31,148 nucleotides of DNA from Deltaproteobacteria bacterium (GCA_020053185.1 JAGVNP010000311.1:1-31148), one strand, 5' to 3'; shown: positions 11,233-31,148, counted from the stretch's first letter. Notes: generated from the sequence alone by a model not told the origin. Program-made: numbers and translations.

Positions 11233-11724
11233 ATGAGAAAATTAGTAGCATTACCCATTATGGTTTTCTTTGTGCTTATAGGTCTTGCAGCCTATGCGGC
11301 AGATCCGCTTGATCTTAAGATGGCAGGCTTTCTTGTGACAACCGCAGTGGATCAGGATGGCAACAAGATGGAAAAGCTCGAAGCGCTGCCTGAAAAGGTT
11401 CAGCCGGGTGATATCATAGAGTATGTCCTTTCCAGCCTGAACAAAGAAGACGCAAGCCTGCATCATGTCACCCTGTCTGCAAAAATGCCTGAGGGCACTG
11501 TGTATACAGGGTCTCAGAAATGTCCTGAGGGCACAAGCGTGGTGTATTCGATCGACAAAGGCAAGACCTTTTCTGCCGGGCCAATAAAATATGTTGTGAT
11601 CGAGGACGGCAAAGAGATCGAGAAGACCGCAACGCCTGACATGTACACCAACATGCAGTGGCTCATTAAAGAGATCAAGTCCAAAGATGTGGCCAAGTGT
11701 CATTACAGGGTCACGGTGAAATAG
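11233..11724 (+). CDS. Small exported single DUF11-type (TIGR01451-like) domain protein, C-terminally incomplete fold (operon gene A)
   Basis: AAGGAG RBS; signal peptide MRKLVALPIMVFFVLIGLAAYA; VQPGDIIEYVL...MPEGTVY.GS...YSIDKGKTFS...WLIKEI...YRVTVK-stop. Confidence 0.85.
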   Translation: MRKLVALPIMVFFVLIGLAAYAADPLDLKMAGFLVTTAVDQDGNKMEKLEALPEKVQPGDIIEYVLSSLNKEDASLHHVTLSAKMPEGTVYTGSQKCPEGTSVVYSIDKGKTFSAGPIKYVVIEDGKEIEKTATPDMYTNMQWLIKEIKSKDVAKCHYRVTVK

Positions 11725-11790
11725 TGAAAAGTGAATAGTAACGAGTAAATAGTGAAAAGTAAAAAGTGAAGAGTAAGAAGAGTAAAGAAG
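11722..11790. repeat. Heptamer array after gene A
   Basis: TAGTGAA AAGTGAA TAGTAAC GAGTAAA TAGTGAA AAGTAAA AAGTGAA GAGTAAG. Confidence 0.7.
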
Positions 11791-11954
11791 TGATGAACCA
11801 GCAAAAAAGCCGACACAGTGTCATTCCCGCATCATTTTCTGTCATTCCCGCGGAGGCGGGAATCCAGGGGTTGTGCAATTATCAGAGAATACTGGATTCC
11901 CATTTGCATGGGAATGACAACGGGTATGTTTTCCGACTTTTTACGAGATCATCA
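11791..11954. repeat. Composite palindromic MITE/REP-like element, copy A
   Basis: Core GTCATTCCCGCGGAGGCGGGAATCCAG...CTGGATTCCCATTTGCATGGGAATGAC (11841-11918) inside imperfect outer inverted repeats TGATGAACCAGCAAAAAAGCC / GACTTTTTACGAGATCATCA. Confidence 0.8.
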
Positions 11955-12083
11955 CAAGTAACGGGATAAACAGAAAACGTGAGGAGTGCGTATTTGAGGT
12001 TTAAAAGGCTAAGTTTAAATGAATTAGTAATGAGGAGCAGCTACTGGGGAATTCTAGATTTGGAAGTTGAAGGAAGCAGCCTG

Positions 12084-12107
12084 GAGCCCGGAATCTTATC
12101 CGGGCTC
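12084..12107 (+). other. 9-bp GC-rich hairpin in the 5' UTR of gene B
   Basis: GAGCCCGGA-ATCTTA-TCCGGGCTC, no U tract. Confidence 0.5.
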
Positions 12108-12180
12108 ACGCCTAACGCAACACGCCTTACGAAAAAAATAAATAAAAATCGTGAAAGGAAATAGGAAAGAAGGAGGTTTT

Positions 12181-15156
12181 ATGGGAAAGAAAAGCAAAAC
12201 GAGGATTTTAATTCTTTGGACCGTAGCGTTGGTGACGATGCTCGGCCTGGCTGGGATAGCATTTGCCCTGACACCTGCCGGCACAATAATCGGCAACTCG
12301 GCAACCGCTACCTACTATGACGAGAACAACAATGAATATACCACTACATCCAATTTGGTAACAACCGAGGTACAGGAAGTATGCGGAGTTGATGTCACGC
12401 CGGATACCACAGTATCAAAACAAGGTGTTGCTGGTCAGACAGTATACATGCCCTTTGCAGTAACAAACAAAGGAAATGGCCAGAATACATTTAATCTTGG
12501 AACTTCGGCAACAGGTACTTCCGGTGCAACATACACGATCTACATTGACAGCAATGGAAACGGTGTGGTCGATGCTGGAGAAGGGGTGGCAAGCTCTGTC
12601 ACACTAAATGCAGATGCAGCAGCAGCTATTATTGTTGCAGTTGCAGTTCCTGCAGGTGCAGCAGATACCGACACATATTCTTTTACGCTCACTGCAACAG
12701 GCACAGCTCCTACCGGATGCGCTGATATAGAGGATGGATCTGTAGATGTGATTTCAGATGCACTGCTTACCATCAGTAAACAGGTAGACAAGAGCGTTTC
12801 AGCTCCGGCTGGCGTGCTCACCTACACAGTGAGCTTTCAGAACGTGGGTACAGTTGCTGCAAAGGCAAAGGATGACTTTGCTGTTGATTATGATAATGAT
12901 GGAGATGCTGATGCCAGCGTAGAAGGTATCCTAGTATCTGATGCTATCCCATCAGGCTCTGCATATAAAGCAGGATCTGCCTCGGGACAGCCACAAACCA
13001 GCCCGACAGGCTACGTTGTGTATTCTTCCAATGGCACGAGCTGGTTCAGGACAGAAGCTAATGCAGGAGGAGCAGCTGCAATTACCAATGTGGGATTTTT
13101 CATGCAGGATTCAGGTCCTATAGACACCACGCTTGGTAATGTGCTGGATCCTAACCAACAGGGATTCTTAAGTTTCCAGGTAACAGTGGATGACCCATTT
13201 GAAGAATCAGACGGTTATGTGGACAACGATGCGAGCGTTGCATATTCAGACAGCGCAAACACTTCACATGAGGTGACCTCAAATGAAGTACACACTCAAA
13301 TTCCTGCATCAACAACCGCTGATATTTCTACAAGCGATAGAAAAGCGACCTGGAATTTAGTGGAAGAGGATTCTGGCACAAACTGGCACAATGACAATGT
13401 GGTTGCTAGTGCGCCTGCAGGCCACTGGGTAGATTTCACGCATTCTGCTTCAAATAATGATGGAGTATATGCAGATGTGATAAGTCTTGAGACCGAGGAT
13501 GCACCTCTTGGCTGGATCGTTGAGTTCTGGAATGCAGACGGCACAGCAAAGCTCATTGATACCAATAGCGACGGAAAGATTGACCTTGGCACAGTTGCCG
13601 CACATGGCATTGCAAACTACATGGTAAAGGTATTCATCCCTGCCGATGAAGATACAGGCGGGAGCGTGGATATACTGGCAACATCAGGCAATAACCCGGC
13701 AGAAGTAGACAGAACACAGGATACAGTTACAGACATCATTACCGCGAATGTGGATATTGCGCAGCAGGGTTCTGGCGGTGATTGGGCAATAAATTCTGAT
13801 AACCCATCAGATAACAATACAGATGGCACTGCTGACAACGACGATATTCTTCCTGGAGACATGGACACAACAATTAATCCCGGAGAGACTATCTCATATC
13901 CGATACAGGTGGTAAATACCGGCGGATCTTCTGATTCCTACAGCCTTACCTATACAGGACTTCCTTCCGGCGCAACCGCAACCATCTCCACTGACGCTGA
14001 CTGTGATGGTATCGTAGAATCAGGAGATTATCAGATCACGGATACTCCGCTTATGGGTGGAACAGCCTTAAGATCTGCCGCATCAGCTACAAACACGCTA
14101 TCTGTGTACTCTGTTGCAAACTTCAGCGTAAATGATAAGTTAATCGTAGGGCTTGATGGTGTTGTACGGACAGTTACGGGTGTTGATACGTCAGCGAACA
14201 CAATCACAGTATCAGGATCAGCTATCACTGCTGCATCAGGCACGCTGGTATCCGAGTATATCTGTGTGGCATTAGTGGTTCAGACTGCAATAACCACACC
14301 TCCAGGTTCAGTCAACATAGTGGTTGAGGCTACATCACACAATTCCGGTGCATCCAATGATATGGATATGGCGCTTACAGTAAACGAAGTCTGCGGCATA
14401 TCTGTGAGCCCGGACAACTCAGGCACAGTGCCTCCTAGCGGATCAACCACCTATGAGCATATGATTCAGAACAGCGGAAATACGGCAGCAGATGTAACAA
14501 TCACTGTTCCATCAACTGGTACGCAGCTTACCTATGTAATACTTGATGCAGACGGCAATCCGCAGGGTACAAGCTATACTATTACCGGTCTTGCAGCAGG
14601 CGCATCAGCGAACTTCTCAGTAAAGGTTCAGGCTCCGTCATCTGTTACATCTGGAACCGTAGAGACTATAAACGTGACGGTTACTTCAAATGGAGCAGGT
14701 GGATGCTCTGATACTGTACAGGATTCTACATCGGTGATCGAGGGCTACATAGAGCTTACAAAGTACCAGAGCGTAGCAGACACTGATGGCCCGAATGCTC
14801 AGACAGGTATCTGCACAGGGAGTGCTGATTCCGTTACTGGCGGACCTTGCGACGAGATTACCTACAGGATCAAGTTCAAGAACGTGGGCATCCAGAACGC
14901 AGTGAATGTGGTGATCACAGATCCAATTCCTGATCATACCACATATGTGGCTGGGTCCTTAGGTCTTGATACTAACTGCGATGGTACAATCGACACTGCT
15001 TACGGAGATGGTACTGGTGACGCTGATCAGGCTGAATACGACTCCACGAACAACCTCGTGCGGTTCAGGGTCGGAGACGGCGCAACTTCATCTGTAGGCG
15101 GAACACTGGTTCCTGGCGCAGAAGGCTGCGTGATCTTTAAGGTAAAGATACAATAA
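12181..15156 (+). CDS. Exported 991-aa DUF11/Ig-like repeat protein, candidate major fibre subunit (operon gene B)
   Basis: AGGAGG RBS before ATG 12181; signal peptide ending GIAFA; mature start LTPAGTIIGNSATATY; several Ig-like domains with DxNxDG loops; one complete internal DUF11 and a terminal truncated DUF11 ending FKVKIQ-stop. Confidence 0.88.
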   Translation: MGKKSKTRILILWTVALVTMLGLAGIAFALTPAGTIIGNSATATYYDENNNEYTTTSNLVTTEVQEVCGVDVTPDTTVSKQGVAGQTVYMPFAVTNKGNGQNTFNLGTSATGTSGATYTIYIDSNGNGVVDAGEGVASSVTLNADAAAAIIVAVAVPAGAADTDTYSFTLTATGTAPTGCADIEDGSVDVISDALLTISKQVDKSVSAPAGVLTYTVSFQNVGTVAAKAKDDFAVDYDNDGDADASVEGILVSDAIPSGSAYKAGSASGQPQTSPTGYVVYSSNGTSWFRTEANAGGAAAITNVGFFMQDSGPIDTTLGNVLDPNQQGFLSFQVTVDDPFEESDGYVDNDASVAYSDSANTSHEVTSNEVHTQIPASTTADISTSDRKATWNLVEEDSGTNWHNDNVVASAPAGHWVDFTHSASNNDGVYADVISLETEDAPLGWIVEFWNADGTAKLIDTNSDGKIDLGTVAAHGIANYMVKVFIPADEDTGGSVDILATSGNNPAEVDRTQDTVTDIITANVDIAQQGSGGDWAINSDNPSDNNTDGTADNDDILPGDMDTTINPGETISYPIQVVNTGGSSDSYSLTYTGLPSGATATISTDADCDGIVESGDYQITDTPLMGGTALRSAASATNTLSVYSVANFSVNDKLIVGLDGVVRTVTGVDTSANTITVSGSAITAASGTLVSEYICVALVVQTAITTPPGSVNIVVEATSHNSGASNDMDMALTVNEVCGISVSPDNSGTVPPSGSTTYEHMIQNSGNTAADVTITVPSTGTQLTYVILDADGNPQGTSYTITGLAAGASANFSVKVQAPSSVTSGTVETINVTVTSNGAGGCSDTVQDSTSVIEGYIELTKYQSVADTDGPNAQTGICTGSADSVTGGPCDEITYRIKFKNVGIQNAVNVVITDPIPDHTTYVAGSLGLDTNCDGTIDTAYGDGTGDADQAEYDSTNNLVRFRVGDGATSSVGGTLVPGAEGCVIFKVKIQ

Positions 15157-15160
15157 AGGA

Positions 15161-15227
15161 TCGAGGCTAAAGGCTAAAGGCATGAGGTGAACTTACACCT
15201 TAAGCCTTTAGTCTAAGCCTTACTCGA
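15161..15227 (+). other. Long imperfect stem-loop built of 7-mer units directly after gene B
   Basis: TCGAG...AGGCTAAAGGC-ATG-AGGTG-AACTTA-CACCT-TAA-GCCTTTAGTCT...CTCGA. Confidence 0.6.
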
Positions 15228-15234
15228 AGCAGTA

Positions 15235-18200
15235 ATGGAAAATGGCCTCATGAAAAGAAAAGCCTCATTAGGGCTGAAAATACTTTTACAGGCAGGGGTT
15301 ACCCCTCACCTTGCTGTCATTCCCGCGGAAGCGGGAATCCAGAAAAAGATGAGCAAAGAACCTGGATTCCCGACCTGGTCGGGAATGACAAGACTGATGG
15401 ACCTTTTCCGGTTTACGAATCACGGTTTACGAATCACGAATTACGAATCACGAATTACGAATTACGCCCTACGTTTTACGCTTTACGTAATAGCAGCGTT
15501 GCTCGGCATTTTTGTTGCTACAGGAAGACCTGCGTTAGCATTCACCGAAGCGGGCACTCATATTTATAATACTTCATTTGCAACATATGAAGACACAGAC
15601 GGCTTTATCTATCATATTCAATCCAATACCGTAGAATTAACAGTAGCCCAGGTGTATGCGATCAATATCACACCTGACGGCACAACCGCCTCGCCAGGTC
15701 AGAAAAAAAATGCATATCCGGGCGGAGAGGTTTATTTACCATATGTACTTACAAACCCTGGAAACGGCCCAGACTCATATCAGCTTGATGTAGAAAATCT
15801 ACCTGGCGATGATGAGGATCTTAGCAATCTTAAAATTTATATCGATGAAAATCAGAACGGGGTTGTTGATCCATCAGAGCCTGTTTATGATAACACCAAT
15901 CCTCCGCTCATTGATTCAGGTGGGAGGCTCTATCTTGTAATAGCAGGCACAGTTCCTGCATCTGTGGCTTCAGGCACGATTTTTGTAAATGTGAACGGGA
16001 CTTCAAACGGAGATGGGACAAAGGTCGATAATGAAAATGTTTCAAAAATCAACATAACAGCAGATGGGTTTATCGAGGCATACAAGTCTGCTGACAAAAC
16101 CGAAGTAGACCCCGGTGGTACGGTTACCTTTACCATAGAATTCCAGAATAAAGGCTCAAAGCCTGTTTTGGGCACAGATATCTTCAACTGTAATGGCGAT
16201 TTTGATAATGATGGGACAACAGAGACAGCAGAGCAAGGGCTTCTGGTAGCTGATGTTGTACCGGATCATCTGACCTACATCGACGGAAGCGCCACATGGG
16301 CGCCGTTGCAGGGATTCCCCGTGTTTGCAGGCACAAACGGGATCTGGAAGGACGATGCCTCTGATGTAACTGGCTCAATTGAGTCAGTAGGGCTCTTTAT
16401 ACCTGAGGATGCATCTGGCGAGACACTTGTGCCGGATCAGGGCGGATTTGTTTCTTTCCGATGCACGGTAAATACTGATGCGCCGGTAAGTACAATTTCG
16501 AACACAGCAGAAGTTAAATATGCAAATTTAAACGGGCACCAGGTCACACCTACCAATACGGTAGAAGTGGATATACTTCCCAGAATAGATATCCGGGCTG
16601 ATGACACGGATGAAATCAACGAACCCGAGCACGAAGGCTCTGGAGTAGCGTCAGACGAGCATGATGTGATGTGGATCGACCATGCTGCATCCGGGGCGTG
16701 TATAAGCTTTGAAAATGAGGTTTGGAATCTCGGGAATGTAGACGATGTGATCAATGTCACATTTGATCAATCAAGATCTGAAAACCTGCCAGATGGCGCC
16801 GCTACCACTGGGGTCCTGTTCTATAACTTAGACGGCGCACTGCTGACAGACAGCAACGGCGACGGCAAGCCAGATGTAGGCGTTGTAAGTCCTGGAGAAA
16901 GCGTTCACTTTATCACAAAGGTCTGTTTCCCTGAAGGGAGTTCCGCGAATGATGTAGTGATTGCAGTAGAAGGTTCTTCCAGCCTGGACCCCAGCAAGAC
17001 CGATCTCACATTTAACAGGACCGGTGAAGTAGTGGCAGCTTCTGTCAAAGTGAATGTCATTGTTGGGAATACAGAAGAGCCCTGGGTCAAGAAAAAAGTT
17101 ATTGTTTATGAATATGACTGCTACGGAAACCTTACAGATCAAAAGGTTTTCTGGACCGATAGTAGCGGATTTATCGCATATGATGAATTTGGCAATTCCT
17201 CTCCCCTCTACAACTGGATAGAGGATAGTGACCCTAACGACCCTGACTGTAAATATACCTACAGAATAGGGCTTACCGAAGACTACTCGGGCTTTACTTA
17301 TTATGTATCCCCTGGATTCTCCAAGTCAGATATTGACCAGACAACCTCCTCCGATGAAACCCCCAAGCCTGGCACAGGGGGAAAGATCACTACTCAGAAG
17401 CTTCCAAGCGGGGGAAAAGTGTTGTCGGCCAGCATTGATCCTGCAGGATATGTCTATGATGGGGTGACAGGAGAGCGCATAGACAGGGCATGTGTCGTAC
17501 TTTATAAATGCAATGATAGTTCCTGCTCCAGCTATACTGCTGTTGATGCATCACTCCTTGATGTGTATCCTGACGGAAGCACGTTACAGGACAATCCGCA
17601 GGTCTCAGGCCCTACAAATGGGTCTGGCACTGATGTGGGAAAAGGCGATGGGGCCTTTGAGTTTAAGTTTTCTGATTTTACGCCAACAGATGAAGGGTGG
17701 TATTTTGTAGAGGTTGATTTTGACTGCGGGCTTCCTGCCAGCGATGCAAATCTGGCAAATGATTATAATCCTGTATTGCTTAATTCCGGCGCCACATGGG
17801 ATCCTTCTTCAGGAGCGCCTTACCATGGCCAGCGTTTCTATATTGATGCAACCAATTCCGGCGCAATAAACATGAGGATTCCTTTGCTGCCAGCGGATTT
17901 TGTTCCTATTGAGATCAAAAAAGAGGTGAATAGCGATATTGCATCCATAGGCGATCCGCTCAAGTTCACCATTACAGTAACGAACCCTAGCCCATACACA
18001 TGCTATGATGTGGATGTAATTGATACGCTGCCAAAAGAGCTTCGGTACAGAAAAGGCACAACAACCATAGACGGGGCTAAAGCCGATGATCCTGAGATCT
18101 CTTCTGATGCAAGAATGCTTACATGGAATATAGGAAACCTTGATCCGGGCGGTAGTGTAAAAATCACGTTTTATGCAATAGTAGGTGCAAACATCACAGA

Positions 18201-20583
18201 AGGAGCAAAGAGGGCTAATGTTGTCCGGGCTTTAGGGTGGAGCGACGACAACCATTCCTATCCAATAGAATCCAGTCCGGCCTATGCATATTTCAAGCTC
18301 ACAAAAGGTGTATTCACTGACAAGGCCTACATCATAGGCAAGGTGTTCATAGATGAGCCGAATTGCGAGCAGCTCTCTGGCGAAATTGCCATCACCAGGA
18401 CCATAGAATATAGTCTGGAAGATTCTGCCAAAGACAAAGACGCGAAAATAGCAACCTTACTTGCCGGACAAAAAGACAAATCAAACTTTGCCTCTTTAGA
18501 CAGGATGATCCTCATACACAAAGTCTTTATCCATAATAAATCACAGTATCCATTTTACTCGATCTCTTACAAAGAAGACTCAGCCTTTAAGCCGATAAAA
18601 GGAAGCTCGTTGCTGGAAGGAGACCTGATCCATGATCCCAAAGCCGGGGATGGCGCGCTTATCTGGAAGATAAAAGACATAGAGCCGGGCAAGGTTGTTG
18701 TTCTGACATTTGCCTCTGAGTCTAAAGATAGTGATGTAGATGAGATAAAATGCGAGATACCGTTCAGCATTGAAAAGGACAATATCAAAAAAGACCTGAA
18801 GGTTGAGCTTCCAATTATATTCAAGATGCAATCCCCGGATGAATATCAGCTCGCGGTGTATTTTGATTTTGGAAAATATAACCTCAGCCAGAATGATAAA
18901 GCAGCCCTTGATAAGGTCATAAAGACCGTCAAGGCCAAGGGATACAAAAAACTTTATGTAAGCGTCAAGGCCTACACTGATTCTGTAAGGGTTATGAAAG
19001 AAGAGGAGCGGGCCTTCCAGGATAATCTCCAGCTTTCAGGACAAAGGGCTGAAACCGTAAGGAAATATCTGGCAGACCAGCTCATTGAAATGCAAAAGGT
19101 TGAAGTGGTGCATGAAGATGTAAAGCCTGTGCTGAAAAATACATTCAGTATAAAAGTCGTCACATCTAATGACCGGGCTTCAATCTCCAAGTCAGAGAAA
19201 ATTTTGAAGGACAAAGAAATTCCTTCATTTGTACAGGAAAAGATTATTAACTATAAAACAAAGGAATACACCTTATATGCAGGCGGCTTTGACAAGAAAG
19301 AGACCGCTGAAGCTGCTGTAAAAGAACTTTCCAAGGTGTTTAATGACGGGTTTGTAATCGAGCCAACGTCTGTTGAAAAGATTTTCCTTGATGAAAACAT
19401 CCTCTACCAGATCGAGGCATTAGGGCCTCTTGATCCCAAGGTTGAAAACCTGCTCTCTTCAGTCGGCACGCCTCAAAACCGCAGGGCTGAAGTAAAGATC
19501 ATCCCTATTAACATAGGAAACTATTCAATGAATCTAAGCAGAGTCGCAGGAGCAGAATGCGATGTATGCGGAAACGGCATCCAGGATAATAATGAGCAGG
19601 GTGTTTCCGGAGTAAAGATATACATGGAAGACGGCAGATATGTCGTCACTGATTCTGAAGGCAAGTATCACATAGACAATGTAGATCCCGGCATACATAG
19701 CTTGAAGGTAGATAACACAACCCTGCCGCCAGGCACTTCTCTTGCCATAATAAATAACCGCAATATGGATGATCCGGAATCCATGTTTGTAGATCTGTTC
19801 CCCGGGGACATCTTCAAAGCCAATTTCAGGCTATGTCCAGGGCCAAGACTGGAGGCTACAGAAAAAATATGTGATCCGCTTGTGAGCAGTATAAGGGTTA
19901 CCAGAACGATCAAAGACATTTTGATAGACCCGGGCTCAGGGCTGATACGGCTCAAGCATGAAATCATAATAGAAAATCATTCGGATCTTCCGCTGTTCGA
20001 GACCACGTACAAAGAGGTCTCGGCATATAAAATAGTGCCTGGTACAGTATCTTTCAACGGATCTCCGTTCAAAGATCCCAAGTACAAAGACGGTGCATTT
20101 ACATGGAATCTCACGCTTGTAAAGCCAATGGATGAGATCCATATATGCTTCACATCAGAGACCCCGCAAAAATCAACAGATATAAATGCAACGCTTGAGT
20201 TCAGGGCTAAGCCGATAGCCACCCCCAAGGAGATCAAGGTGGAGTTGCCTGTTCATTTTGCAAGTAGAGAAAAGAGCATCTATGAACTCACGGTTTACTT
20301 TGATTTTGGAAAATACAATCTCAGGCCTGATGCCGTAAAGACCCTGGATAAGATCATCGAGACTCTCCGGAAGAAAGACTATGACATGGTCTATGTCTGG
20401 ATAAGGGCACATACAGATGCCACCAGGGTCGATCCGAGCAAGCTGGAATATGAAAACAATCCGGAGCTTTCAGAGAAGCGGGCAACCATTGTCAGGGAAT
20501 ATCTGAAAGCCGGGCTTATCGATATCAAGAAGATCAAAGTCCAATCAGGCGAGCCTGACGGCAAAACAGGCGAGGGAAAATAG
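15235..20583 (+). CDS. Exported DUF11 / SdrD-B-like / OmpA-like / SPOR multidomain protein, candidate peptidoglycan-binding anchor (operon gene C); true start may be 15385 or 15397
   Basis: h-region VIAALLGIFVATGRPALA, then FTEAGTHIYNTSFATY; the first ~500 mature residues are paralogous to gene B. Two DUF11 domains; SdrD-B-like GNGIQDNNEQGVSGVKIYMEDG..VTDSEGKY; OmpA-like VYFDFGKYNL...YTD...LS..RA...NRRAEV with a SPOR insert; a second, half OmpA-like domain at the C-terminus. Confidence 0.88.
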   Translation: MENGLMKRKASLGLKILLQAGVTPHLAVIPAEAGIQKKMSKEPGFPTWSGMTRLMDLFRFTNHGLRITNYESRITNYALRFTLYVIAALLGIFVATGRPALAFTEAGTHIYNTSFATYEDTDGFIYHIQSNTVELTVAQVYAINITPDGTTASPGQKKNAYPGGEVYLPYVLTNPGNGPDSYQLDVENLPGDDEDLSNLKIYIDENQNGVVDPSEPVYDNTNPPLIDSGGRLYLVIAGTVPASVASGTIFVNVNGTSNGDGTKVDNENVSKINITADGFIEAYKSADKTEVDPGGTVTFTIEFQNKGSKPVLGTDIFNCNGDFDNDGTTETAEQGLLVADVVPDHLTYIDGSATWAPLQGFPVFAGTNGIWKDDASDVTGSIESVGLFIPEDASGETLVPDQGGFVSFRCTVNTDAPVSTISNTAEVKYANLNGHQVTPTNTVEVDILPRIDIRADDTDEINEPEHEGSGVASDEHDVMWIDHAASGACISFENEVWNLGNVDDVINVTFDQSRSENLPDGAATTGVLFYNLDGALLTDSNGDGKPDVGVVSPGESVHFITKVCFPEGSSANDVVIAVEGSSSLDPSKTDLTFNRTGEVVAASVKVNVIVGNTEEPWVKKKVIVYEYDCYGNLTDQKVFWTDSSGFIAYDEFGNSSPLYNWIEDSDPNDPDCKYTYRIGLTEDYSGFTYYVSPGFSKSDIDQTTSSDETPKPGTGGKITTQKLPSGGKVLSASIDPAGYVYDGVTGERIDRACVVLYKCNDSSCSSYTAVDASLLDVYPDGSTLQDNPQVSGPTNGSGTDVGKGDGAFEFKFSDFTPTDEGWYFVEVDFDCGLPASDANLANDYNPVLLNSGATWDPSSGAPYHGQRFYIDATNSGAINMRIPLLPADFVPIEIKKEVNSDIASIGDPLKFTITVTNPSPYTCYDVDVIDTLPKELRYRKGTTTIDGAKADDPEISSDARMLTWNIGNLDPGGSVKITFYAIVGANITEGAKRANVVRALGWSDDNHSYPIESSPAYAYFKLTKGVFTDKAYIIGKVFIDEPNCEQLSGEIAITRTIEYSLEDSAKDKDAKIATLLAGQKDKSNFASLDRMILIHKVFIHNKSQYPFYSISYKEDSAFKPIKGSSLLEGDLIHDPKAGDGALIWKIKDIEPGKVVVLTFASESKDSDVDEIKCEIPFSIEKDNIKKDLKVELPIIFKMQSPDEYQLAVYFDFGKYNLSQNDKAALDKVIKTVKAKGYKKLYVSVKAYTDSVRVMKEEERAFQDNLQLSGQRAETVRKYLADQLIEMQKVEVVHEDVKPVLKNTFSIKVVTSNDRASISKSEKILKDKEIPSFVQEKIINYKTKEYTLYAGGFDKKETAEAAVKELSKVFNDGFVIEPTSVEKIFLDENILYQIEALGPLDPKVENLLSSVGTPQNRRAEVKIIPINIGNYSMNLSRVAGAECDVCGNGIQDNNEQGVSGVKIYMEDGRYVVTDSEGKYHIDNVDPGIHSLKVDNTTLPPGTSLAIINNRNMDDPESMFVDLFPGDIFKANFRLCPGPRLEATEKICDPLVSSIRVTRTIKDILIDPGSGLIRLKHEIIIENHSDLPLFETTYKEVSAYKIVPGTVSFNGSPFKDPKYKDGAFTWNLTLVKPMDEIHICFTSETPQKSTDINATLEFRAKPIATPKEIKVELPVHFASREKSIYELTVYFDFGKYNLRPDAVKTLDKIIETLRKKDYDMVYVWIRAHTDATRVDPSKLEYENNPELSEKRATIVREYLKAGLIDIKKIKVQSGEPDGKTGEGK
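15316..15389. repeat. Palindromic element core, copy B, within the longest possible 5' end of gene C
   Basis: GTCATTCCCGCGGAAGCGGGAATCCAG...CTGGATTCCCGACCTGGTCGGGAATGAC; reads VIPAEAGIQ...GFPTWSGMT in frame. Confidence 0.8.
15411..15487 (+). repeat. Heptamer array encoding the n-region of the gene C signal peptide
   Basis: TTACGAA TCACGGT TTACGAA TCACGAA TTACGAA TCACGAA TTACGAA TTACGCC CTACGTT TTACGCT TTACG; reads TNHGLRITNYESRITNYALRFTLY. Confidence 0.75.
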
Positions 20584-20794: not shown

Positions 20795-20795
20795 A

Positions 20796-20946
20796 AGGTT
20801 ATGAAGGTTAAGGGGTAGGGATTAAGGGATTATGGTTCAAGGTTCAAAATACATGGTTCAGGGTACAGGGGAAAATTTCGAAATTCGAAATTCGAAATTC
20901 GAAATTCGGAACACCCTGCGCCTTATACCTTATACCTTACACCTCT
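20796..20946 (+). repeat. Composite heptamer cassette spanning the RBS, start codon and n-region of gene D
   Basis: TAAGGG/GGTTCA units, then (TTCGAAA)n, then (ACCTTAT/ACCTTAC)n; a related array sits at 20589-20651. Confidence 0.75.
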
Positions 20947-23900: not shown

Positions 23901-26453
23901 TATGATGATAATTTTGATCTGCAATATATCGTTATAATCTATGAGACTAATACGCTGGCTGAAGACAAGCATGTCTTTGGCGGAAGGGCAGAAAAAGAGC
24001 TGATAAAAGGCCTGCGTATAGGCGGTCTTGCTGCAAGCGAAGAGAGGGATGTTAAAGACAGGCTGGTAGGCGGCCTTGATATCACATATGACGACGGCAA
24101 AGGACTAAAGTTTGTTGCAGAATATACGGCTGCAGACGGATATGATGAGATTGCCCTAAAAGAAGTATCAGGTGATGCAAAAAGGGCTGAGATCTCTTAT
24201 GATAAGGAATTCAAGAAATTTACAGAAAAAGGAAACGCCTATTTTACCGATGTTGAAGACGAGTTTCAGAATCTGTCTACCAGCGCCATCATAGATGGTA
24301 AACAGGCCTATGGCGCCAAAGAGGAGTTTAAGGTAAAGAAGACAAAGACGACGTTGTCTGCAGAAGCCTACAGCGAAGAGGAAAAAGACGGAAGCTCTAC
24401 AACAAAGGTTGCATCTGCCGAGGTGAAACAGGAAATCGGAAAGAAAGTTTCGCTCACTGCAGGCGCAAGGGTGATCAATGAAGAAGAGCCTCCGGATGAA
24501 AGAGATATTACCCAGGTCATAGGCGGGATAGGCATAAAGCCTATAGAAAAATTGAGCATTAATGTAAGAAGAGAGCAGTCTCTCGTGGATGACGATGAGG
24601 AAAAATCAGACCGCTATCCTTCCAAGACAGTAGCAGGGATAAAATATAGTCTTACGAAGAAGACATCGGCATATGTAACCACTGAACTTCAGGAACTGCC
24701 TGAAAAAGACGTTGCCCTGACAACGTTCGGCACAGAGACCTCGCTCACGAAAAACACCACTGCCTTTGCAAAATACACGATCGATGACAGCATTAGTGGC
24801 TGGAGAAATCAGGCTCACTCTGGGCTTAACCATTCGTGGGCGATCGAGGATAATTTCTCAATAAGTGTAGGCGGAGAAGAGGTCAGAACGTTATCCGGTG
24901 ATGACAGCGAAGATTATACGGCATCGAACATAGGTTTCCAGTATTTTCAACCTGATAAGAAAAAATATACCATGTCTGGAAAATGCGAAGCGCGGTTTAA
25001 CAATGAAACAGACAATGAGTATGTAATGAGCTTTGGCGGCACACTCAAGATCGCAAAAGACTATACCATACTTGCGCGGGAGAGATTTTTCGATTCAGAG
25101 TTTGACGAAAACGACCTTCTCTTAGGTCTTGCATACAGACCTGTTTCCTATGACAAATTCAATAGCTTGATGAAATTCAGATATAAATGGATAGAAGAGA
25201 GTGAAGAGGAGAAGATAGTAAAATATATAGGGTCATGGCATGCCAACTATCAGCCCAACAGAGATCTTACCCTCATGGGAGAGTATGCATTCAAGATCGT
25301 TGATGATGGGCTACACACCTACACGGATCTTGCACGCTTACGGGTTTTGTATGATGTGACAGACAGGATAGATTTAGGGGTGCATGGCGGCGTTCTGATG
25401 CAGCATGATACAGATACATACAGCCTTGCATACGGGCCAGAGGTCGGCGTTAGGGTGATCAAGAATGTATGGGCAAGCGCAGGCTACAACTTCTCGGGCC
25501 TTACGGATGAAGATTTTGACGATGCAAGCGCCTGGAACAAGGGTTTTTACTTCAAGCTGAGGGCAAAGGTTGACGAAAATACGCTCTCAGATATTAAAAA
25601 AGCAGTAAAGAGGAACCCGAAGGAAAAGAAGATCGAGGCATCAAAAGAGACAGTAAAAAAGATAGAACCTTTGATGGATTCAGATAATGATGGCGTGCCT
25701 GACTCTAAGGATAAGTGTCCTGATACACCGAAAGGTGTAGCGGTTGATAAATCTGGATGCCCCATAGACAGTGACAATGACGGTGTAGCTGATTATTTAG
25801 ACAAATGTCCAGACACACCAAAAGGTGTAAAGGTAGACGGGTTTGGATGTGCTCTTGATAGCGATGCAGATGGTGTTCCTGACTATCTTGACAAGTGTCC
25901 TGATACACCGAAAGGCGTTAGAGTTGATAAGGTCGGATGTCCCCTTGATAGCGATAAAGACAGTATTCCTGATTTTCAGGATAAATGTCCGGAAACGCCT
26001 TCTGGTGTAGCTGTGGATCTGACAGGCTGTCCGCTTGATAGTGATGGTGATAATGTTTCTGATTACCGGGACAAATGCCCTGGTACGCCAAAAGGCGTAG
26101 CAGTTGATGAGAATGGATGCTGGACGCTTCATGGTGTGTTGTTCGAGTATAAAGAATGGAAACTTAAAAAAGCGATTTATCCCAGCCTGAAAGATGTGGT
26201 TAAGGTGCTGAAGGCGAATCCGGAACTTAAGATAGAGGTGCAGGGTCATACTGATAATATTGGAAACGATAAGTATAATCAGGATCTGTCAAATAAGCGT
26301 GCAAAGGCTGTAGCAGATTTTATTATCAGCCAAGGCATTGCAGCGGATAGGATTTCATATAAGGGTTATGGATTTTCAAAGCCAATTGCTTCGAACGATA
26401 CAGAAAAAGGAAGGGCGATGAACCGCAGGGTTGAGTTCCAGCCAATCTATTAA
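20832..26453 (+). CDS. 1873-aa outer-membrane protein: 3 SPOR, half OmpA-like, Ig-like domains, large predicted beta-barrel, 5 TSP3-like repeats, C-terminal OmpA domain (operon gene D)
   Basis: TAAGGGA RBS; signal peptide ending PLSGYA; SPOR-like YSIQIG...YWTVRVG; alternating amphipathic strands from RPWIVNG (~23200) to GFYFKLRAKVDE (~25575); DSDxDGVPDxxDKCP repeats; canonical GHTDNIG...LSNKRA...GYGFSKP...NRRVE. Confidence 0.88.
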   Translation: MVQGSKYMVQGTGENFEIRNSKFEIRNTLRLIPYTLHLSLVFFILLCLMPLSGYAQTSNSDPRTLTPDPRSQNIAYSIQIGPNMDKPGAESFLKTLPDAVKNKDAFIYQTDKGYWTVRVGITEKPEGLDELKKWLASEGIEDAAAVKTDIRKVSGQWSGARSQESGIKGESSKEITPQTTIRDSKLKDEALILPMIDKVYSTLWSVQLGSYSDKQTMEAFFQSLPDSVKRKNAFIYKGKRGYWAVRVGFAEKPEGLDELKAWLVSQGLEDIHMAKTEVKKIESKELRDKLLGRSVKEADTKTLEPEEDEWKTIYSVRLLRTENLKQVQNATIDIESKGIPTFMSENITYFKKRLYTLYVGRFLSQDEAEKAAAELSKKYGKCPVDPLFTRTIGGDSLGDIFYLDAMHTLEPKVPNRLSTSGTQENRRAEVLILLFKETTESVEKSFMEKGKGSQCIFKFYANYLYPLEEIYDISAFMSLPEGSAYVDGSFVINEIPVTTAKKGRYIVASTEKLIGYDPFTMSINVAGREDIKTEEIHYVVYGKTRNGKTLKLVTSNDEIMENEALAIYLPNPTPEKMEESEVKALIRKPSFGIIYPERNIIVSGKQTDIDVAIPVKSEYKLLINGKEADKKNLSETATDEKLGVKVVSYTAVALEDGENHIKIIVDGKPFDEKQITVTGNVARLSYEIYPKEPSADGKSSAYVMVRLLDKDGKPVKQNAYIKVYVDKGDIFDDETDSFKRFDDDGFEARVIAGEATIKLSPASTTEKRSMKVEFGDGLEKDIDVRFYPEKRPWIVNGVIEGTYTESKTKNSDEALVEYPADHSEEGSHTDVDGGVFAKGSVKDYTLTFKYENKPKDEDIILEQNIPSTEEEQYYPVYGDESEQFFEAASQDKFFVKAERGLSYFMHGDFKTDLKAPQLEYNVYDRTLNGEKINLEVKDNFKITGIHSYTSQDIVKDEQPGRGVSGPYFFGKGIPVEFSEKIYIEVRDRYHPDRVLDRQDLNRFTDYTVNYDEGWVLFKEPVHQYDDNFDLQYIVIIYETNTLAEDKHVFGGRAEKELIKGLRIGGLAASEERDVKDRLVGGLDITYDDGKGLKFVAEYTAADGYDEIALKEVSGDAKRAEISYDKEFKKFTEKGNAYFTDVEDEFQNLSTSAIIDGKQAYGAKEEFKVKKTKTTLSAEAYSEEEKDGSSTTKVASAEVKQEIGKKVSLTAGARVINEEEPPDERDITQVIGGIGIKPIEKLSINVRREQSLVDDDEEKSDRYPSKTVAGIKYSLTKKTSAYVTTELQELPEKDVALTTFGTETSLTKNTTAFAKYTIDDSISGWRNQAHSGLNHSWAIEDNFSISVGGEEVRTLSGDDSEDYTASNIGFQYFQPDKKKYTMSGKCEARFNNETDNEYVMSFGGTLKIAKDYTILARERFFDSEFDENDLLLGLAYRPVSYDKFNSLMKFRYKWIEESEEEKIVKYIGSWHANYQPNRDLTLMGEYAFKIVDDGLHTYTDLARLRVLYDVTDRIDLGVHGGVLMQHDTDTYSLAYGPEVGVRVIKNVWASAGYNFSGLTDEDFDDASAWNKGFYFKLRAKVDENTLSDIKKAVKRNPKEKKIEASKETVKKIEPLMDSDNDGVPDSKDKCPDTPKGVAVDKSGCPIDSDNDGVADYLDKCPDTPKGVKVDGFGCALDSDADGVPDYLDKCPDTPKGVRVDKVGCPLDSDKDSIPDFQDKCPETPSGVAVDLTGCPLDSDGDNVSDYRDKCPGTPKGVAVDENGCWTLHGVLFEYKEWKLKKAIYPSLKDVVKVLKANPELKIEVQGHTDNIGNDKYNQDLSNKRAKAVADFIISQGIAADRISYKGYGFSKPIASNDTEKGRAMNRRVEFQPIY
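21049..21672 (+). repeat. Tandem duplication of a SPOR-like domain within gene D
   Basis: AFIYQTDKGYWTVRVGITEKPEGLDELKKWLASEGIED vs AFIYKGKRGYWAVRVGFAEKPEGLDELKAWLVSQGLED (27/38 identical by hand count). Confidence 0.8.
25674..26123 (+). repeat. Five 90-bp (30-aa) thrombospondin type-3-like Ca-binding repeats
   Basis: xDSDxDGVxDxxDKCPxTPxGVxVDxxGCx five times, exactly 450 nt. Confidence 0.9.
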
Positions 26454-26454
26454 T

Positions 26455-26574
26455 TAAGGGGTAAGGATGATGACACAGGGTTCAGGGGACAGGGTTCAGG
26501 GGAAAATTTCGAAATTCGAAATTCGAAATTCGAATTACACCTTACACCTTACACCTTACGCCTTACGCTTTACG
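26455..26574 (+). repeat. Composite heptamer cassette at the start of gene E
   Basis: TAAGGGGTAAGG-ATGATG-ACACAGGGTTCAGGGGACAGGGTTCAGGGG-(TTCGAAA)n-(CACCTTA)n. Confidence 0.75.
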
Positions 26575-26994
26575 ATAATCTTGATATTCGCCATGATTGT
26601 TGCATCGCCTGTCCATAGCCAGGAAGCAGTTAATCTTTCGCAGGTTGAGCATAAGATCACAGTTGCATCGCAAGGAAGGATAGAAGTCAGTCTCAATCTT
26701 TACAATGACCTTGGTGAAGATATATCTTTAACAGCAGACAAGTGTTGAGGGCTGTCAGTGACCTTCCCGGCGGGAAGTGAGGTAAAAGGCGGTGAGATGA
26801 AACCTGTTGTGATAAACACAACAAAACAAGATACTACAGTGAACATAAAGTTTCAGGGCAAACAAGCAAGCGGGAGCCTGAAAGTGATACTAGAGAGAGA
26901 AAAGAAACAGGTGAAGGCAGTGGAGAGCAAAGCTAAAAATATCCCCATGCCTTCTCCAGAAGTGAAGTATGAAGAAGAAGGAAATAGGGATTGA
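26467..26994 (+). CDS. Small exported beta-rich protein with an in-frame TGA at 26746-26748 (possible selenoprotein, or a nonsense-disrupted gene) (operon gene E)
   Basis: ORFs 26467-26748 and 26758-26994 are in the same frame, separated only by TGA-GGG-CTG-TCA; reads ...LTADKC*GLSVTFPAG...; signal peptide IILIFAMIVASPVHS. Confidence 0.65.
26763..26777 (+). promoter_or_regulatory. Candidate bacterial SECIS hairpin
   Basis: CTTCCC-GGC-GGGAAG; the loop starts 20 nt after the UGA and begins with GG. Confidence 0.45.
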
Positions 26995-27031
26995 GGATAA
27001 AAACAGGATTATGGGGTATGGATTAAGGATT

Positions 27032-27186: not shown

Positions 27187-27397
27187 GGGTGAAGGTAAAA
27201 GGTTTCAGTAGGGTATAAAGGCTGAATGTTAATTAAGGGGTAAAATGATGGTTCAGGGTTCAGGGTTCAGGGTTCAAGGTTTAGGGCGAAATTTCGAAAT
27301 TCAAAATTCGAATTTCGAAATTTGCAATTCGCAATCCGCAAATCGCAATCCGCAAATCGCCCCACACCCTACACCTTACACCTTATACCTTAAACCC
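27185..27397 (+). repeat. Composite heptamer cassette at the start of gene F
   Basis: (GGGTTCA)3; perfect 14-bp inverted repeat AAATTTCGAAATTC / GAATTTCGAAATTT (27289-27323); CGCAATC/CGCAAAT units; CACCTTA units. Confidence 0.75.
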
Positions 27398-30300
27398 TTG
27401 TTAGCCATTCTTTTTATCATTGCCTCTTTTCTTATACCCTTTAAAGCCTCTGCAGCGAGCACGTCTCTTGTTATCAATGAGGTGATGTTTGATCCAACAG
27501 GCGCTGATACCGGCTTAGAATGGATAGAGTTTATCGCAAGGAACGATGTAACTATAACAGGGTGGGACTGCTTAGATAAGGATAGTAACACATATACATT
27601 CCCTAGCCTTAGTTTAAAAGCTGGCGAGATCGTGGTCCTGCATATAGGCACGGGCACAAATGATCTTACAGGGCCTGTATATAACCTGTATACCAATGGA
27701 GCCGCTACAACATGGCTTGACAATGTTGGCGACAGTATCCGGCTTAGGAATGGATCAGATGCTGCAGTAGATTATATGGCATACGGAAATGCCGGCGCTT
27801 GGTCTGGCTATACATGGACCAACAACATTGATATTACGTATATCTATGAAGGCCTCAGCATCGGCCTTAGCAGGGACGGGATAGATACTGATAACGGCAC
27901 TGGATGGACAGAGTATTCTACCTCTACATCTGGCAACCCCAATAAGACCTCCGGCATAGGCGTAGTAAAGACAGGAACAGAAGAGATATCAAGGGGAGAC
28001 GCAGCCGGCGGAGAATACACACTAACCATCGCAAACAGCGGTGACGGGCCAGCCTATGGCAGCGCATCATCGCCATATGGCATGGTTGTTGTGGATGACT
28101 ATCCGACAAACTTCTCTGTGTTATCTGTGACATCGGTGACGAGAAACGGGATAACATTCTCGTCGTATTCCCAGTCAAATGATGGCGATAAGATTACGTT
28201 TACAAGTCTGCCTGTGCTTATGCCAGGGGATACGCTGGAGATCAAGTTTAAGTTCTATGTGGACTGCGTTGCAACTATCGGATACAAGACAAATCTTGTA
28301 ACCGCAAAATATCACGACCTTCCTGACCTTTCAGATGCAGAAAAGAATGAGCAGGCTGTTTTGGATACCCTTGTGGACAAAGGCACGCTGGTGGTGAAAA
28401 TGGAGGCCATTGCCATAAACGGCACTCCCATAACACCTACCCCCACACCTGCGGCAGAGGTCGGCGAGACAATAAAGGTAAGGGTTTCGCTGCATAATAC
28501 AGATAACGGCAAGCTTTTTGATGTAGCATCAGCGACAACATGGGGAACAGGGCTTACGTATGTGGGCAATCTGGTATGCAATAATGTCACGTGCAGCTAC
28601 GACAGTGTAAATACAAAGGTAACTTCCACAGTCTCTGAAATTCCTCCGAGTACAATAGATAATACCTACTCATACACCTTTGACGTAAGGGTAGATGCAT
28701 GTGAAAATCTCACATCAACCTCTACCGGCACTGGAAAGTGCCTGGCAGCAGGAGGTATCGAGGAAGGGGTTGAGGTCATTATAAAGACCCCGGATATTGA
28801 TTATACCCTGCCTACCATAAGCATCCCTTATGCAGGGACCCAGTCAGTAAGCATCCCTGTTACAAACAACGGCAACGGCAAGGCATATACATTCAGCCTG
28901 GATACCAACATGGAGAGCCTGCCACTTAGCGTGTCAAATATCGCATCTGGATGGACATACAATGCAGGCACAGGGGTATTTACCTATAGTGCAGCATCGT
29001 ACATTTTGCCAGGGGCAACTATCCCGCTTACCTTTGACCTCGCAACCTCTGTAAGCTGCGCTGACAGAAGCCCTTCAGGCATGATAACCTTTACGCCGCT
29101 GTATTACAACGGCTGCACGAAAGCGTTTGCTGCGCCGCGCAAATACACGACCTTTTCCACTACAAACGTACCTGTTGTCACAATAGCAAAAACAACCCCA
29201 AACACATATGTGCATGTGGGTGATCCTGTGTCGTATACTGTTACCTTGGGCGCATCTTATCCGTCCGGCATATCCGGGAACATTGTGGTCACAGATACTG
29301 TGCCGAGCCAGATAGTAAGTGTAGGCGCATCTGCAACAGCAGGGTCTGTAACAGTGTCGGGCAATGATATTACCTGGACCATTGCTCCCGGAGTGGCAGA
29401 TGGTGAAGTCCTTACCATCACCGGCACAGTGGATAGCGACCCTTGTCTCCAGGGAACAACGATAACCAATTCTGCCTCATTTACTGCAGCAGATACTCAG
29501 GGCTGTCCTTTGGCAGGCTCCGGCTCGGCTACCATATATATAAACAACAACCCTGATGCTACAATTGCCCAGCAGAAGTCTGTGATTGGGTCTTTGGAAG
29601 CATGCAACCCTGCTGGCATTACCATAACAAACACATATACCATGGGCACCGGAGTTTCTGGCACCTGGGCAGGCTCTTCATTTAAAGACGACCTGCACAG
29701 CGGAGGCCTCTGCTATATGACCGGCACTGCCGAATACAGACTTGATACAGATGACGGCTCGGGCACAGCATGGACAGCATGGACAGCAATCTCATCTGGA
29801 AATTTGAGCATTGGCTCCAACGGCGAGCTCCAAGTAGATCTCTCGTTCCTGGCAGCAATAGACGGAGATGCGAATGTTGCAGGCAATGATATTCAGATAA
29901 GATACAAAGTCTATGTGTGCGAGGAAAACCTTGGCGGCGCAACATCTGTGACATGGGATTTGCTCTCAACCCTGCATATAGAGGGTAACACTGGAAGCTG
30001 TGGATCTAACGGAGATTATGTCCAGCATCTGCTTCTGGATCTGTATACTGCGTCCATAGCCCTTGCCATAGACATACCTGCAATAATAGAAGACTGCGGC
30101 GTATATGATGCAACGATCACTGTCTCGATGGACACGCCTGCTCCTTACTATGATCTGATCATTGATATGCCTGTAGGAAACTATGAATATCTGGACAGCC
30201 TTGTTGCGTCAGGATTCAATGGCCACACGCCCGTTGTCAGCACCTTAACTGGTCCTGCAAGGGTGAGGTTCAGCTTTGATTTTGATACCAACAATCCTGA

Positions 30301-31148
30301 TGAATTAAGCGAAGGCGGCACGCTTACATTCCAGTTGAGAAAGATATGCGGAACACCATCCGGAGTATCAGCGACCGGAGAATATAAATCCAGGGAAGAT
30401 ACCAGTTCATGCTGCACCGGAGGCACATGCGGAGACATACTGCGGGGCGACCTGAGCGCATCAGATGCGCCTGTATTCTCCAACAGCGGCGATCTTGTGC
30501 TTAATGTTACCCCTGAGACATATCCTGTGGAGACAACAGATCTCAAGTGGATGATGTATGTTACCAACAGGGGGAGCGGTACTGCTTACAATACTATTAT
30601 TCAGGACATTTTAGGCCCTAATTTTACATATGCAGGCTCTAAGGTAAACGGGGTGGTTGCAAACCCTCTCGTAGAACATGATACACCGTATCTTGGATAC
30701 ACCAGAATCACATGGGATCTGGACAATATCGCTGCATCGAAAACAACATTAATTGAGGAGATTATAACACCTCTTACAGGATATTCCTGTGATCTGGCTG
30801 ATACCACATCCAACATAAACGTATATTGGGGCTGCGGGGATGACCATTGCCAGGAAATAAAAGATGTACTTCTTCCCAAATTTACTTTGACCAGTTCAGA
30901 TGCGATTATCCTAACCAACTACCCTGGCCCGCTGAACATGTGCGATCAAGGCACGATCATACTGCAACTCAAGAACGCAGGCGGGGCACATGTGTACAAT
31001 TCAGAAGTGTCCCATGATTTTGCCCCGAACTCGGAAGACACAGGCCTTATCTATGTACCGGGCTCTGCAGAGGTGAGCACAGATGGGACCAATTATACTG
31101 CAACAAATGATCCGGTTATAAGCGGGAGCACAGTTACATGGCAGGGCT
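27245..31148 (+). CDS. Giant exported adhesin-like protein: lamin-tail-like domain followed by many Cys-containing DUF11/Ig-like domains; 3' end beyond the window (operon gene F)
   Basis: Manual translation from ATG 27245 (TAAGGGG RBS) is open to the window end, over 1300 codons. Signal peptide ...PLLAILFIIASFLIPFKASA; LVINEVMFDPTGADTGLEWIEF; then repeated xxVxKT...GDxVxYTVT...VTDTVP...ITW units. Confidence 0.88.
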   Translation, partial: MMVQGSGFRVQGLGRNFEIQNSNFEICNSQSANRNPQIAPHPTPYTLYLKPLLAILFIIASFLIPFKASAASTSLVINEVMFDPTGADTGLEWIEFIARNDVTITGWDCLDKDSNTYTFPSLSLKAGEIVVLHIGTGTNDLTGPVYNLYTNGAATTWLDNVGDSIRLRNGSDAAVDYMAYGNAGAWSGYTWTNNIDITYIYEGLSIGLSRDGIDTDNGTGWTEYSTSTSGNPNKTSGIGVVKTGTEEISRGDAAGGEYTLTIANSGDGPAYGSASSPYGMVVVDDYPTNFSVLSVTSVTRNGITFSSYSQSNDGDKITFTSLPVLMPGDTLEIKFKFYVDCVATIGYKTNLVTAKYHDLPDLSDAEKNEQAVLDTLVDKGTLVVKMEAIAINGTPITPTPTPAAEVGETIKVRVSLHNTDNGKLFDVASATTWGTGLTYVGNLVCNNVTCSYDSVNTKVTSTVSEIPPSTIDNTYSYTFDVRVDACENLTSTSTGTGKCLAAGGIEEGVEVIIKTPDIDYTLPTISIPYAGTQSVSIPVTNNGNGKAYTFSLDTNMESLPLSVSNIASGWTYNAGTGVFTYSAASYILPGATIPLTFDLATSVSCADRSPSGMITFTPLYYNGCTKAFAAPRKYTTFSTTNVPVVTIAKTTPNTYVHVGDPVSYTVTLGASYPSGISGNIVVTDTVPSQIVSVGASATAGSVTVSGNDITWTIAPGVADGEVLTITGTVDSDPCLQGTTITNSASFTAADTQGCPLAGSGSATIYINNNPDATIAQQKSVIGSLEACNPAGITITNTYTMGTGVSGTWAGSSFKDDLHSGGLCYMTGTAEYRLDTDDGSGTAWTAWTAISSGNLSIGSNGELQVDLSFLAAIDGDANVAGNDIQIRYKVYVCEENLGGATSVTWDLLSTLHIEGNTGSCGSNGDYVQHLLLDLYTASIALAIDIPAIIEDCGVYDATITVSMDTPAPYYDLIIDMPVGNYEYLDSLVASGFNGHTPVVSTLTGPARVRFSFDFDTNNPDELSEGGTLTFQLRKICGTPSGVSATGEYKSREDTSSCCTGGTCGDILRGDLSASDAPVFSNSGDLVLNVTPETYPVETTDLKWMMYVTNRGSGTAYNTIIQDILGPNFTYAGSKVNGVVANPLVEHDTPYLGYTRITWDLDNIAASKTTLIEEIITPLTGYSCDLADTTSNINVYWGCGDDHCQEIKDVLLPKFTLTSSDAIILTNYPGPLNMCDQGTIILQLKNAGGAHVYNSEVSHDFAPNSEDTGLIYVPGSAEVSTDGTNYTATNDPVISGSTVTWQG

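Follow-up and report, generated by a model that had tools for sequence, protein, structure and literature searches.

A gene cluster with a CLIPPER domain split between the two ends of one protein, a candidate surface-fibre system of a Deltaproteobacteria bacterium

Domains of the DUF11 family (PF01345), now renamed CLIPPER, have a CnaA-like fold and form a self-catalysed intramolecular isopeptide bond (PMC12617251 / bioRxiv 10.1101/2025.04.25.650565). The bond joins a Lys on the first strand to an Asn on the penultimate strand with the help of a catalytic Asp, as has been shown experimentally (PMC12617251, PDB 9IFR); neither split domains nor intermolecular bonds are described in that paper. 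Here we analyse a stretch of 31,148 nucleotides from a Deltaproteobacteria bacterium (GCA_020053185.1, JAGVNP010000311.1:1-31148; hereafter the window), in which six co-oriented genes, A to F, begin at position 11233 and a CLIPPER domain appears to be divided between the two ends of protein B. An earlier note, made from the sequence alone, had proposed that this cluster assembles a fibre or pilus by complementation of DUF11 domains with donor hairpins. Our sequence comparisons and structure models support that interpretation, and its comparative predictions held wherever they were tested. We propose that the genes A-B-C-D(-E)-F encode a conserved system of the envelope, which would make a surface fibre by intermolecular complementation of the split domain.

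The closest relatives by domain family are the CLIPPER adhesins, for example B9T28_05395 of Acinetobacter silvestris (PDB 9IFR; PMC12617251), which share the triad of residues, the Gram-negative surface and the OmpA anchors with the proteins described here; they differ in that they are single polypeptides with intramolecular bonds. The layout of the cluster is closer to that of chaperone-usher pili (FimH-FimA-FimD, PapG-PapA-PapH-PapC), with an acceptor-only tip, a shaft bearing donor and acceptor, a donor-bearing base terminator and a large outer-membrane barrel encoded in the operon, and with periplasmic assembly that would need no ATP. This is a functional resemblance and not homology. Chaperone-usher pilins donate a single strand, the N-terminal extension (Nte), to an incomplete pilin immunoglobulin (Ig) fold, whereas the donor here is a two-strand hairpin and the fold a CnaA-like CLIPPER. 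The subunits are also multi-domain proteins of 390-1100 amino acids (aa), their junctions are probably covalent, and the likeness of the barrel protein D to FimD/PapC is no more than that of one generic barrel to another. As the earlier note had read from the sequence, no PapD, usher, sortase or type IV pilin gene is recognisable in the window; our Pfam and NCBIfam scans of its open reading frames (ORFs) of at least 100 aa agreed, with no match to PapD, usher (PF00577), sortase or pilin families.

Sortase pili (BcpA, SpaD, RrgB) are likewise covalent polymers of CnaA/CnaB pilins with Lys-Asn isopeptide bonds. In those pili, however, sortase joins the Thr of an LPXTG motif to a pilin Lys and the Lys-Asn bonds are intramolecular, whereas here the window contains no sortase, the C terminus of B has neither an LPXTG motif nor a hydrophobic tail, the host is an outer-membrane bacterium and a self-catalysed Lys-Asn bond would itself form the junction. 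The threads of Sulfolobus (PMC9715654) and BsaA of Clostridium perfringens (bioRxiv 10.1101/2024.11.04.621531) insert an N-terminal donor into the next subunit and lock it with a self-catalysed intermolecular isopeptide bond. Their folds are unrelated (that of BsaA is TasA-like), their subunits are small and single-domain, only one strand is donated, and no outer-membrane step is involved because one host is archaeal and the other Gram-positive. SpyTag/SpyCatcher and the "molecular welding" pairs derived from RrgA (PMC6539128, PMC5333627) are CnaB/CnaA-type domains split into a tag and a catcher that bond spontaneously; these pairs are engineered (RrgA was split artificially in PMC5333627), whereas the pair in B would be natural and would serve assembly. 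Type V pili of Bacteroidota (FimA/Mfa1) also polymerise by strand exchange in an outer-membrane bacterium without a classical usher, but with a C-terminal donor, protease-activated lipoprotein subunits, a different fold and a non-covalent shaft junction. The DUF11 "grappling hook" of Litorilinea is one giant protein and not a split-domain polymer. Our literature search found no description of a split-CLIPPER polymer or of an A-B-C-D operon.

The two halves of a CLIPPER domain in B

The features of B on which the comparison rests are the following.

12181..15156, + strand: gene B, 991 aa; signal peptide and donor hairpin, followed by about seven Ig-like/CLIPPER domains, with an acceptor at the C terminus; candidate major subunit
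12268..12378, + strand: donor hairpin of B (residues 30-66), with the candidate isopeptide Asn N39 at 12295-12297
12754..13308, + strand: internal complete CLIPPER/CnaA-like domain of B (residues 192-376), whose last two strands are homologous to the hairpin
14713..15156, + strand: C-terminal acceptor of B (residues 845-991), with K861 at 14761-14763 and D914 at 14920-14922

The mature N terminus of B had been reported to resemble the last two strands of the internal domain. We recovered the same ungapped alignment, over 29 residues with 10 identities by hand count, at correct coordinates. A hidden Markov model (HMM) built from the N termini of the B family matched B a second time at residues 348-372, the end of the internal complete domain (i-E 2e-7). 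The same model matched the N terminus of the neighbouring protein C (ORF residues 104-139, E 5e-11), whose sequence had been left out when the model was built. At the opposite end of B, the C-terminal DUF11 domain was said to stop at ...GCVIFKVKIQ, just before the last two strands, and profile-profile comparison confirmed this truncation point. The C-terminal domain family aligned to the internal complete domain family (probability 99.4%, E 3e-21) from the first strand (LxLTK) to FKVKIQ/FQVTVD; beyond it the complete domain has about 39 further columns and the C-terminal domain none. The isolated hairpins are too short for Pfam scans, which gave no useful result, and a search of PDB sequences with the acceptor profile returned chance matches only.

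An AlphaFold2 (AF2) model of B (predicted local distance difference test, pLDDT, 91.5; predicted template-modelling score, pTM, 0.64) was used for fold comparison. Its internal domain superposed on the CLIPPER structure 9IFR with Z 12.0 and a root-mean-square deviation of 2.2 Å over 122/123 residues, and also on the pilins BcpA (Z 13.1), SpaD (Z 11.8) and EbpB. As modelled, the internal domain is a genuine CLIPPER fold, the CnaA-like beta-sandwich of about nine strands. These matches came from VIA-align; Foldseek with the whole of B retrieved generic multi-Ig proteins only. Family profiles also matched towards the C terminus, TIGR01451 at B residues 891-927 with 45.2 bits (cut-off 24) and DUF7619 on the C-terminal domain with 33.6 bits (cut-off 27).

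We then considered how far the two halves are conserved. An exhaustive search with B gave 874 cluster representatives at E < 1e-10, which were checked with a looser regular expression, and about 120 listed homologues (870-1100 aa, 27-55% identity) were compared in detail; they include proteins from Thermus sp. CCB_US3_UF1, Thermovibrio, Desulfatibacillaceae, Nitrospirae, Krumholzibacteria, Alcanivorax and Ramlibacter. The 120 listed homologues all open, where the N terminus is complete, with PAGTxIxNxAtAtYxD...tSNxVxtxV directly after the signal peptide, and in all 120 the C-terminal end is an ...F.V.I strand. Donor and truncation, on whose conserved pairing the earlier note had made its proposal depend, thus occur together in about 120 B homologues from many phyla. 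No other 20-residue window of the B family is as well conserved as the hairpin. Twelve of its positions are at least 95% conserved (A33, G34, T35, I37, N39, A43, Y45, D47, S57, N58, V60 and V64), and N39, D47, S57 and N58 are invariant across the listed homologues. In the C-terminal domain K861 and D914 are each conserved at 98% and P917 at 97%. With N39 in the hairpin and K861 and D914 in the acceptor, the CLIPPER triad is, as judged from the alignments, split in B between the two chain ends. In this respect the terminal domain of B differs from complete CLIPPER domains, which carry the Lys/Asp/Asn triad within a single domain of a single chain.

The earlier note had suggested modelling the C-terminal domain of B in complex with its N-terminal segment. 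Complex prediction with B residues 845-991 and 29-70 gave a score of 0.64, compared with 0.02 for the best of three controls; a score of 0.64 was attained by 55/80 solved complexes and by 3/110 mismatched pairs. The confident predicted contacts link residues 853-863 (with K861) and 905-915 (with D914) of the acceptor to residues 37-48 (with N39) and 53-60 of the hairpin. The predicted docking supports complementation, and it does so equally for closure within one chain or between two. We regard some form of complementation between hairpin and acceptor as very likely.

The N-terminal motif could instead be a targeting signal that is read by the barrel of D, by analogy with the TPS domain of two-partner secretion, the truncation being a stable variant of the fold without any complementation. 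The motif does lie directly after the signal peptide and is present in B and C, the two proteins that would need to reach D, and D has no known translocon homology, so that its mode of recognition is free. However, the motif is homologous to precisely the two strands that are absent from the acceptor, with the Asn in the motif and the Lys and Asp in the acceptor; docking is predicted while the controls are near zero; and F-like proteins of the same operon lack the motif. With the homology, the split triad and the docking prediction all against it, a pure targeting role is very unlikely.

Partner proteins and a proposed closure between molecules

The other proteins with donor or acceptor segments, or placed at the tip, are listed below.

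11233..11724, + strand: gene A, 163 aa; secreted stand-alone acceptor domain, ending YRVTVK
15235..20583, + strand: gene C, donor-only anchor; hairpin, B-like stalk of about 500 aa, CLIPPER, SdrD_B, two OmpA-like domains and SPOR
15544..15651, + strand: donor hairpin of C (ORF residues 104-139, right after the signal peptide), matched by the hairpin HMM
27245..31148, + strand: gene F (open at the contig end); N-terminal lamin-tail domain (LTD), then CLIPPER/Ig-like domains; candidate tip adhesin

By Pfam and NCBIfam, B consists of DUF11/TIGR01451/DUF7619, C of DUF11, SdrD_B, two OmpA and SPOR, D of SPOR, TSP3 and OmpA, and F of LTD and DUF11. The PF01345 matches in C (63.3 bits) and F (59.6 bits) were well over the cut-off.

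Comparison of gene order across genomes, proposed in the earlier note as a check, showed that A-B-C-D(-F) recurs: the order A-B-C-D, or A-B-CD with the last two genes fused, was found in nine inspected loci (the window, Thermus, Thermovibrio, L012, L019, G041, G106, G350 and G216). Another 17 pairs of B and D homologues come from contigs that are equal in length. Full-length A homologues were present in 15/400 sampled genomes of the phylum to which this metagenome-assembled genome (MAG) belongs and in 0/6 sampled genomes of its own family, which makes for a patchy distribution. The length of the shaft subunits varies between 390 and about 1100 aa, and some loci carry two. Short B homologues of 390-470 aa occur in the G106 locus (L020) and in the G216 locus (L022), two of them in tandem in G216, which has no F-like gene. 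The G106 and G216 loci, with short shaft subunits and an A that has both Lys and Asp, look like a compact version of the system.

A had been described as acceptor only. Its family aligned to the B acceptor family in hhalign (probability 98%, E 2e-13) with a common end point, and it is a truncated CLIPPER-like domain with neither a donor hairpin nor the catalytic Asp. This Asp is replaced in 11/11 aligned A homologues, among which the Lys varies; in G106 and G216, the A homologue retains both Lys and Asp. In this genome, to judge from these residues, A would bind non-covalently, either as a cap or to hold free hairpins. In the lineages where Lys and Asp are kept A looks able to form a covalent bond, and for this reason it is more likely a cap or initiator there than a chaperone. 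A PapD-like chaperone was rejected as a model for A because A is an acceptor and not a strand donor. Among PDB sequences the A profile gave only one weak match, 9IFR at E 0.5. A fold match to the internal domain of B was found in TTHA1873 of Thermus thermophilus (PDB 7WRK/7WWN; Z 10.6, 130 residues), a hypothetical protein of 160 aa and thus near A in size; the A profile did not detect it, and our literature search found no functional paper on it.

B and C are paralogous over about 500 aa, with 32% identity (E 9e-36, row P0202). C has a hairpin and no truncated acceptor, and ends in OmpA-like and SPOR domains, in agreement with the earlier view of C as a donor with peptidoglycan-binding domains. 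The reverse was expected of F, a protein with an N-terminal lamin-tail-like domain and no donor. Pfam indeed found LTD (E 4e-13) and DUF11 (E 5e-16), and the hairpin HMM gave no match at its N terminus. No further hairpins were found in a search of the same genome, and no F was found in 40 relatives. The proteins that follow D in G041 (P0263), Thermus, L019 and G106 have no hairpin and have a truncated acceptor end with Lys and D-x-[IV]-P, and the Thermus protein at this position is an LTD protein, as is F. In Thermus sp. CCB_US3_UF1 a DDE transposase (L018:14971-16062) separates the D-like gene from the LTD tip-like gene, whose product looks atypical at the N terminus, without a clear signal peptide; the tip gene may be disrupted in this strain.

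These proteins suggest the following assembly. All proteins of the cluster would be exported by Sec. Each acceptor, a CLIPPER domain minus its last two strands, would then receive the N-terminal hairpin of the next protein, which would restore a nine-strand domain at every junction. Complementation would set N39 beside K861 and D914, where a self-catalysed isopeptide bond could form, so that the junction would probably be covalently locked without a sortase. F would be placed at the tip because it has an adhesin domain and an acceptor but no donor, and its acceptor would hold the hairpin of B. B, with both donor and acceptor, would form the shaft in one or many copies, its own acceptor holding the hairpin of the next B or that of C. 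C would end the chain and tie it to peptidoglycan, since it has a donor without an acceptor and carries OmpA and SPOR domains; it would fasten the chain beside or through D, a likely envelope platform or conduit. A would cap or hold free hairpins. The irreversible bond could drive assembly in the ATP-free periplasm. We regard a chain joined between molecules in this way, F-B(n)-C, from split CnaA-like domains as reasonably probable.

Several points weigh against such a chain. PF01345 scored just below its cut-off on the C-terminal domain of B (24.1 vs 24.6 bits). D has no specific similarity to ushers or other translocons (template-modelling score, TM, 0.2-0.3). The C terminus of F is cut by the end of the contig and was not found elsewhere in the assembly. 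The complex predictor is blind to specificity among family members, and B-B pairing is not separable from B-F or C-B pairing. In the AF2 monomer of B the hairpin itself has a pLDDT of 88-90, which suggests that it is docked somewhere. Finally, there is a precedent for docking within the chain, because the Gram-positive pilus adhesin RrgA contains nested split CnaA/CnaB domains that are closed within a single chain.

The last two points fit an explanation in which the hairpin of B completes its own C-terminal domain. B would then be a loop-shaped, covalently closed monomeric adhesin, no fibre would form, and the operon would encode separate adhesins and anchors. The AF2 monomer, confident throughout including the hairpin (pTM 0.64), is what in-chain docking would give. 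However, this leaves C with a hairpin but no truncated acceptor and A and F-like proteins with acceptors but no hairpin, that is, with unpaired halves in every locus. It also leaves B, which has no anchor of its own, without one. Furthermore, the hairpin passes without a linker into domain 1 of B, as at an ordinary junction between tandem domains. We therefore consider closure within one molecule unlikely.

Closure between molecules could also stop at a fixed hetero-oligomer. In this case pairing would be specific, the B hairpin entering only F (or A) and the C hairpin only B, and the product would be an adhesin of defined length, F-B-C, with two junctions. The hairpins of B and C do differ in sequence, as do the acceptors of B and F; B is already about 990 aa long with about eight domains; and the lack of discrimination by the complex predictor leaves room for pair-specific joining. 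On the other hand, the hairpin of B is predicted to dock on the acceptor of B itself, the short B homologues of some loci, sometimes two per locus, resemble pilins, and the G216 locus has no F-like gene. A fixed three-protein complex is rather improbable.

For the F-B(n)-C chain, the conservation of the three residues and the predicted interface suggest that the junctions are probably locked by a covalent Lys-Asn bond. A stronger version, to which we give slightly less than even odds, is that the chain is a true covalent polymer and represents a new class of pilus of outer-membrane bacteria, found in many phyla and made without sortase or ATP. Here a natural "tag" hairpin would enter the "catcher" of its neighbour, and bond formation would drive assembly through a family of giant barrels. 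If the fibre model holds, covalent pili would cease to be a sortase-dependent speciality of Gram-positive bacteria. An assembly pathway unrelated by homology to chaperone-usher, type IV, type V and curli systems, and to sortase pili, would extend over Thermus (Deinococcota), Thermovibrio (Aquificota), Desulfobacterota/Thermodesulfobacteriota, Nitrospirae, Krumholzibacteria and Proteobacteria. An intramolecularly bonded domain would become a polymerisation device once two of its strands move to the opposite end of the protein. A large barrel family (1000-2600 aa) so far without a described function would gain one, and natural thermostable tag/catcher pairs, e.g. from Thermus, would be available for protein engineering.

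The barrel protein D, gene E and the surrounding sequence

The remaining features of the cluster are D and E.

20832..26453, + strand: gene D, 1873 aa; N-terminal SPOR, Ig-like domains, very large beta-barrel, TSP3 repeats and OmpA
23211..25574, + strand: barrel region of D (about residues 794-1581), about 36-44 long beta-strands in the AF2 model
26467..26994, + strand: E, two short ORFs with a TGA between them; signal peptide on the first ORF

D was expected to hold a large barrel. The AF2 model of its residues 700-1650 (pLDDT 81, pTM 0.72) is indeed a very large beta-barrel. Foldseek matched generic large barrels only (TM 0.13-0.30). The best of them, at TM of just 0.2-0.3, were outer-membrane barrels, namely SlpA of Deinococcus, FimD/PapC (0.22-0.30), MtrB, LptD and SprA. 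We found no specific match in sequence or fold to usher, BamA/TpsB, LptD, SprA or TonB-dependent transporters. Pfam gave no match on residues of about 400-1650, the D family has no informative annotation and its Atlas neighbours are unnamed. Outer-membrane exchange by TraA/TraB was rejected as a function since D matches TraB over the TSP3 and OmpA tail only.

Fusions in many other genomes place D behind a C-like protein (P0182, P0183, P0285, P0290 and P0293). Because of them, the sequences suggest that C and D once were, or can be, one gene. In the window C ends in an OmpA-like domain (20281-20583) and D starts with SPOR-type domains (about 21762-22133) that resemble the OmpA-SPOR unit within C. 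The D barrel also stands alone, in homologues of 1050-1240 aa from cyanobacteria and other bacteria (P0329, P0336 and P0337, of Nodularia and Fischerella, and P0318-P0346), which are automatically annotated as "TonB-dependent receptor" or carry DUF2490.

The two ORFs of E are separated by an in-frame TGA at 26743-26777 (..ADKC* followed by GMTFPAG..). None of the other inspected loci conserves E, and there is no such gene between D and F in L019 or in the G041 locus L013.

The window is the entire 31-kb contig of an incomplete MAG (1.78 Mb in 340 contigs, 78% complete). Positions 1-10354 encode housekeeping and regulatory proteins, namely a radical SAM protein, RecO, GlyQS, an HD protein, MoeA, a thioesterase and a TetR regulator. 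The earlier description of six co-oriented genes, all with Sec-type signal peptides, holds for the orientation; the signal peptides were called by eye only, and the translation starts of C, D, E and F are uncertain because they fall within repeat cassettes. These short tandem or palindromic cassettes lie at 15235-15540, 20796-20990, 26467-26560 and 27245-27445, at the 5' ends of the four genes, and their translation reads FEIRNSKFEIRN or RITNYESRITNY. A second repeat, with the translation VIPAEAGIQ...HLHGNDN, is found between A and B, between E and F and in the 5' end of ORF C. The cassettes of the first kind occur again on other contigs (G000 contigs C30, C305, C62, C149, C39 and C256).

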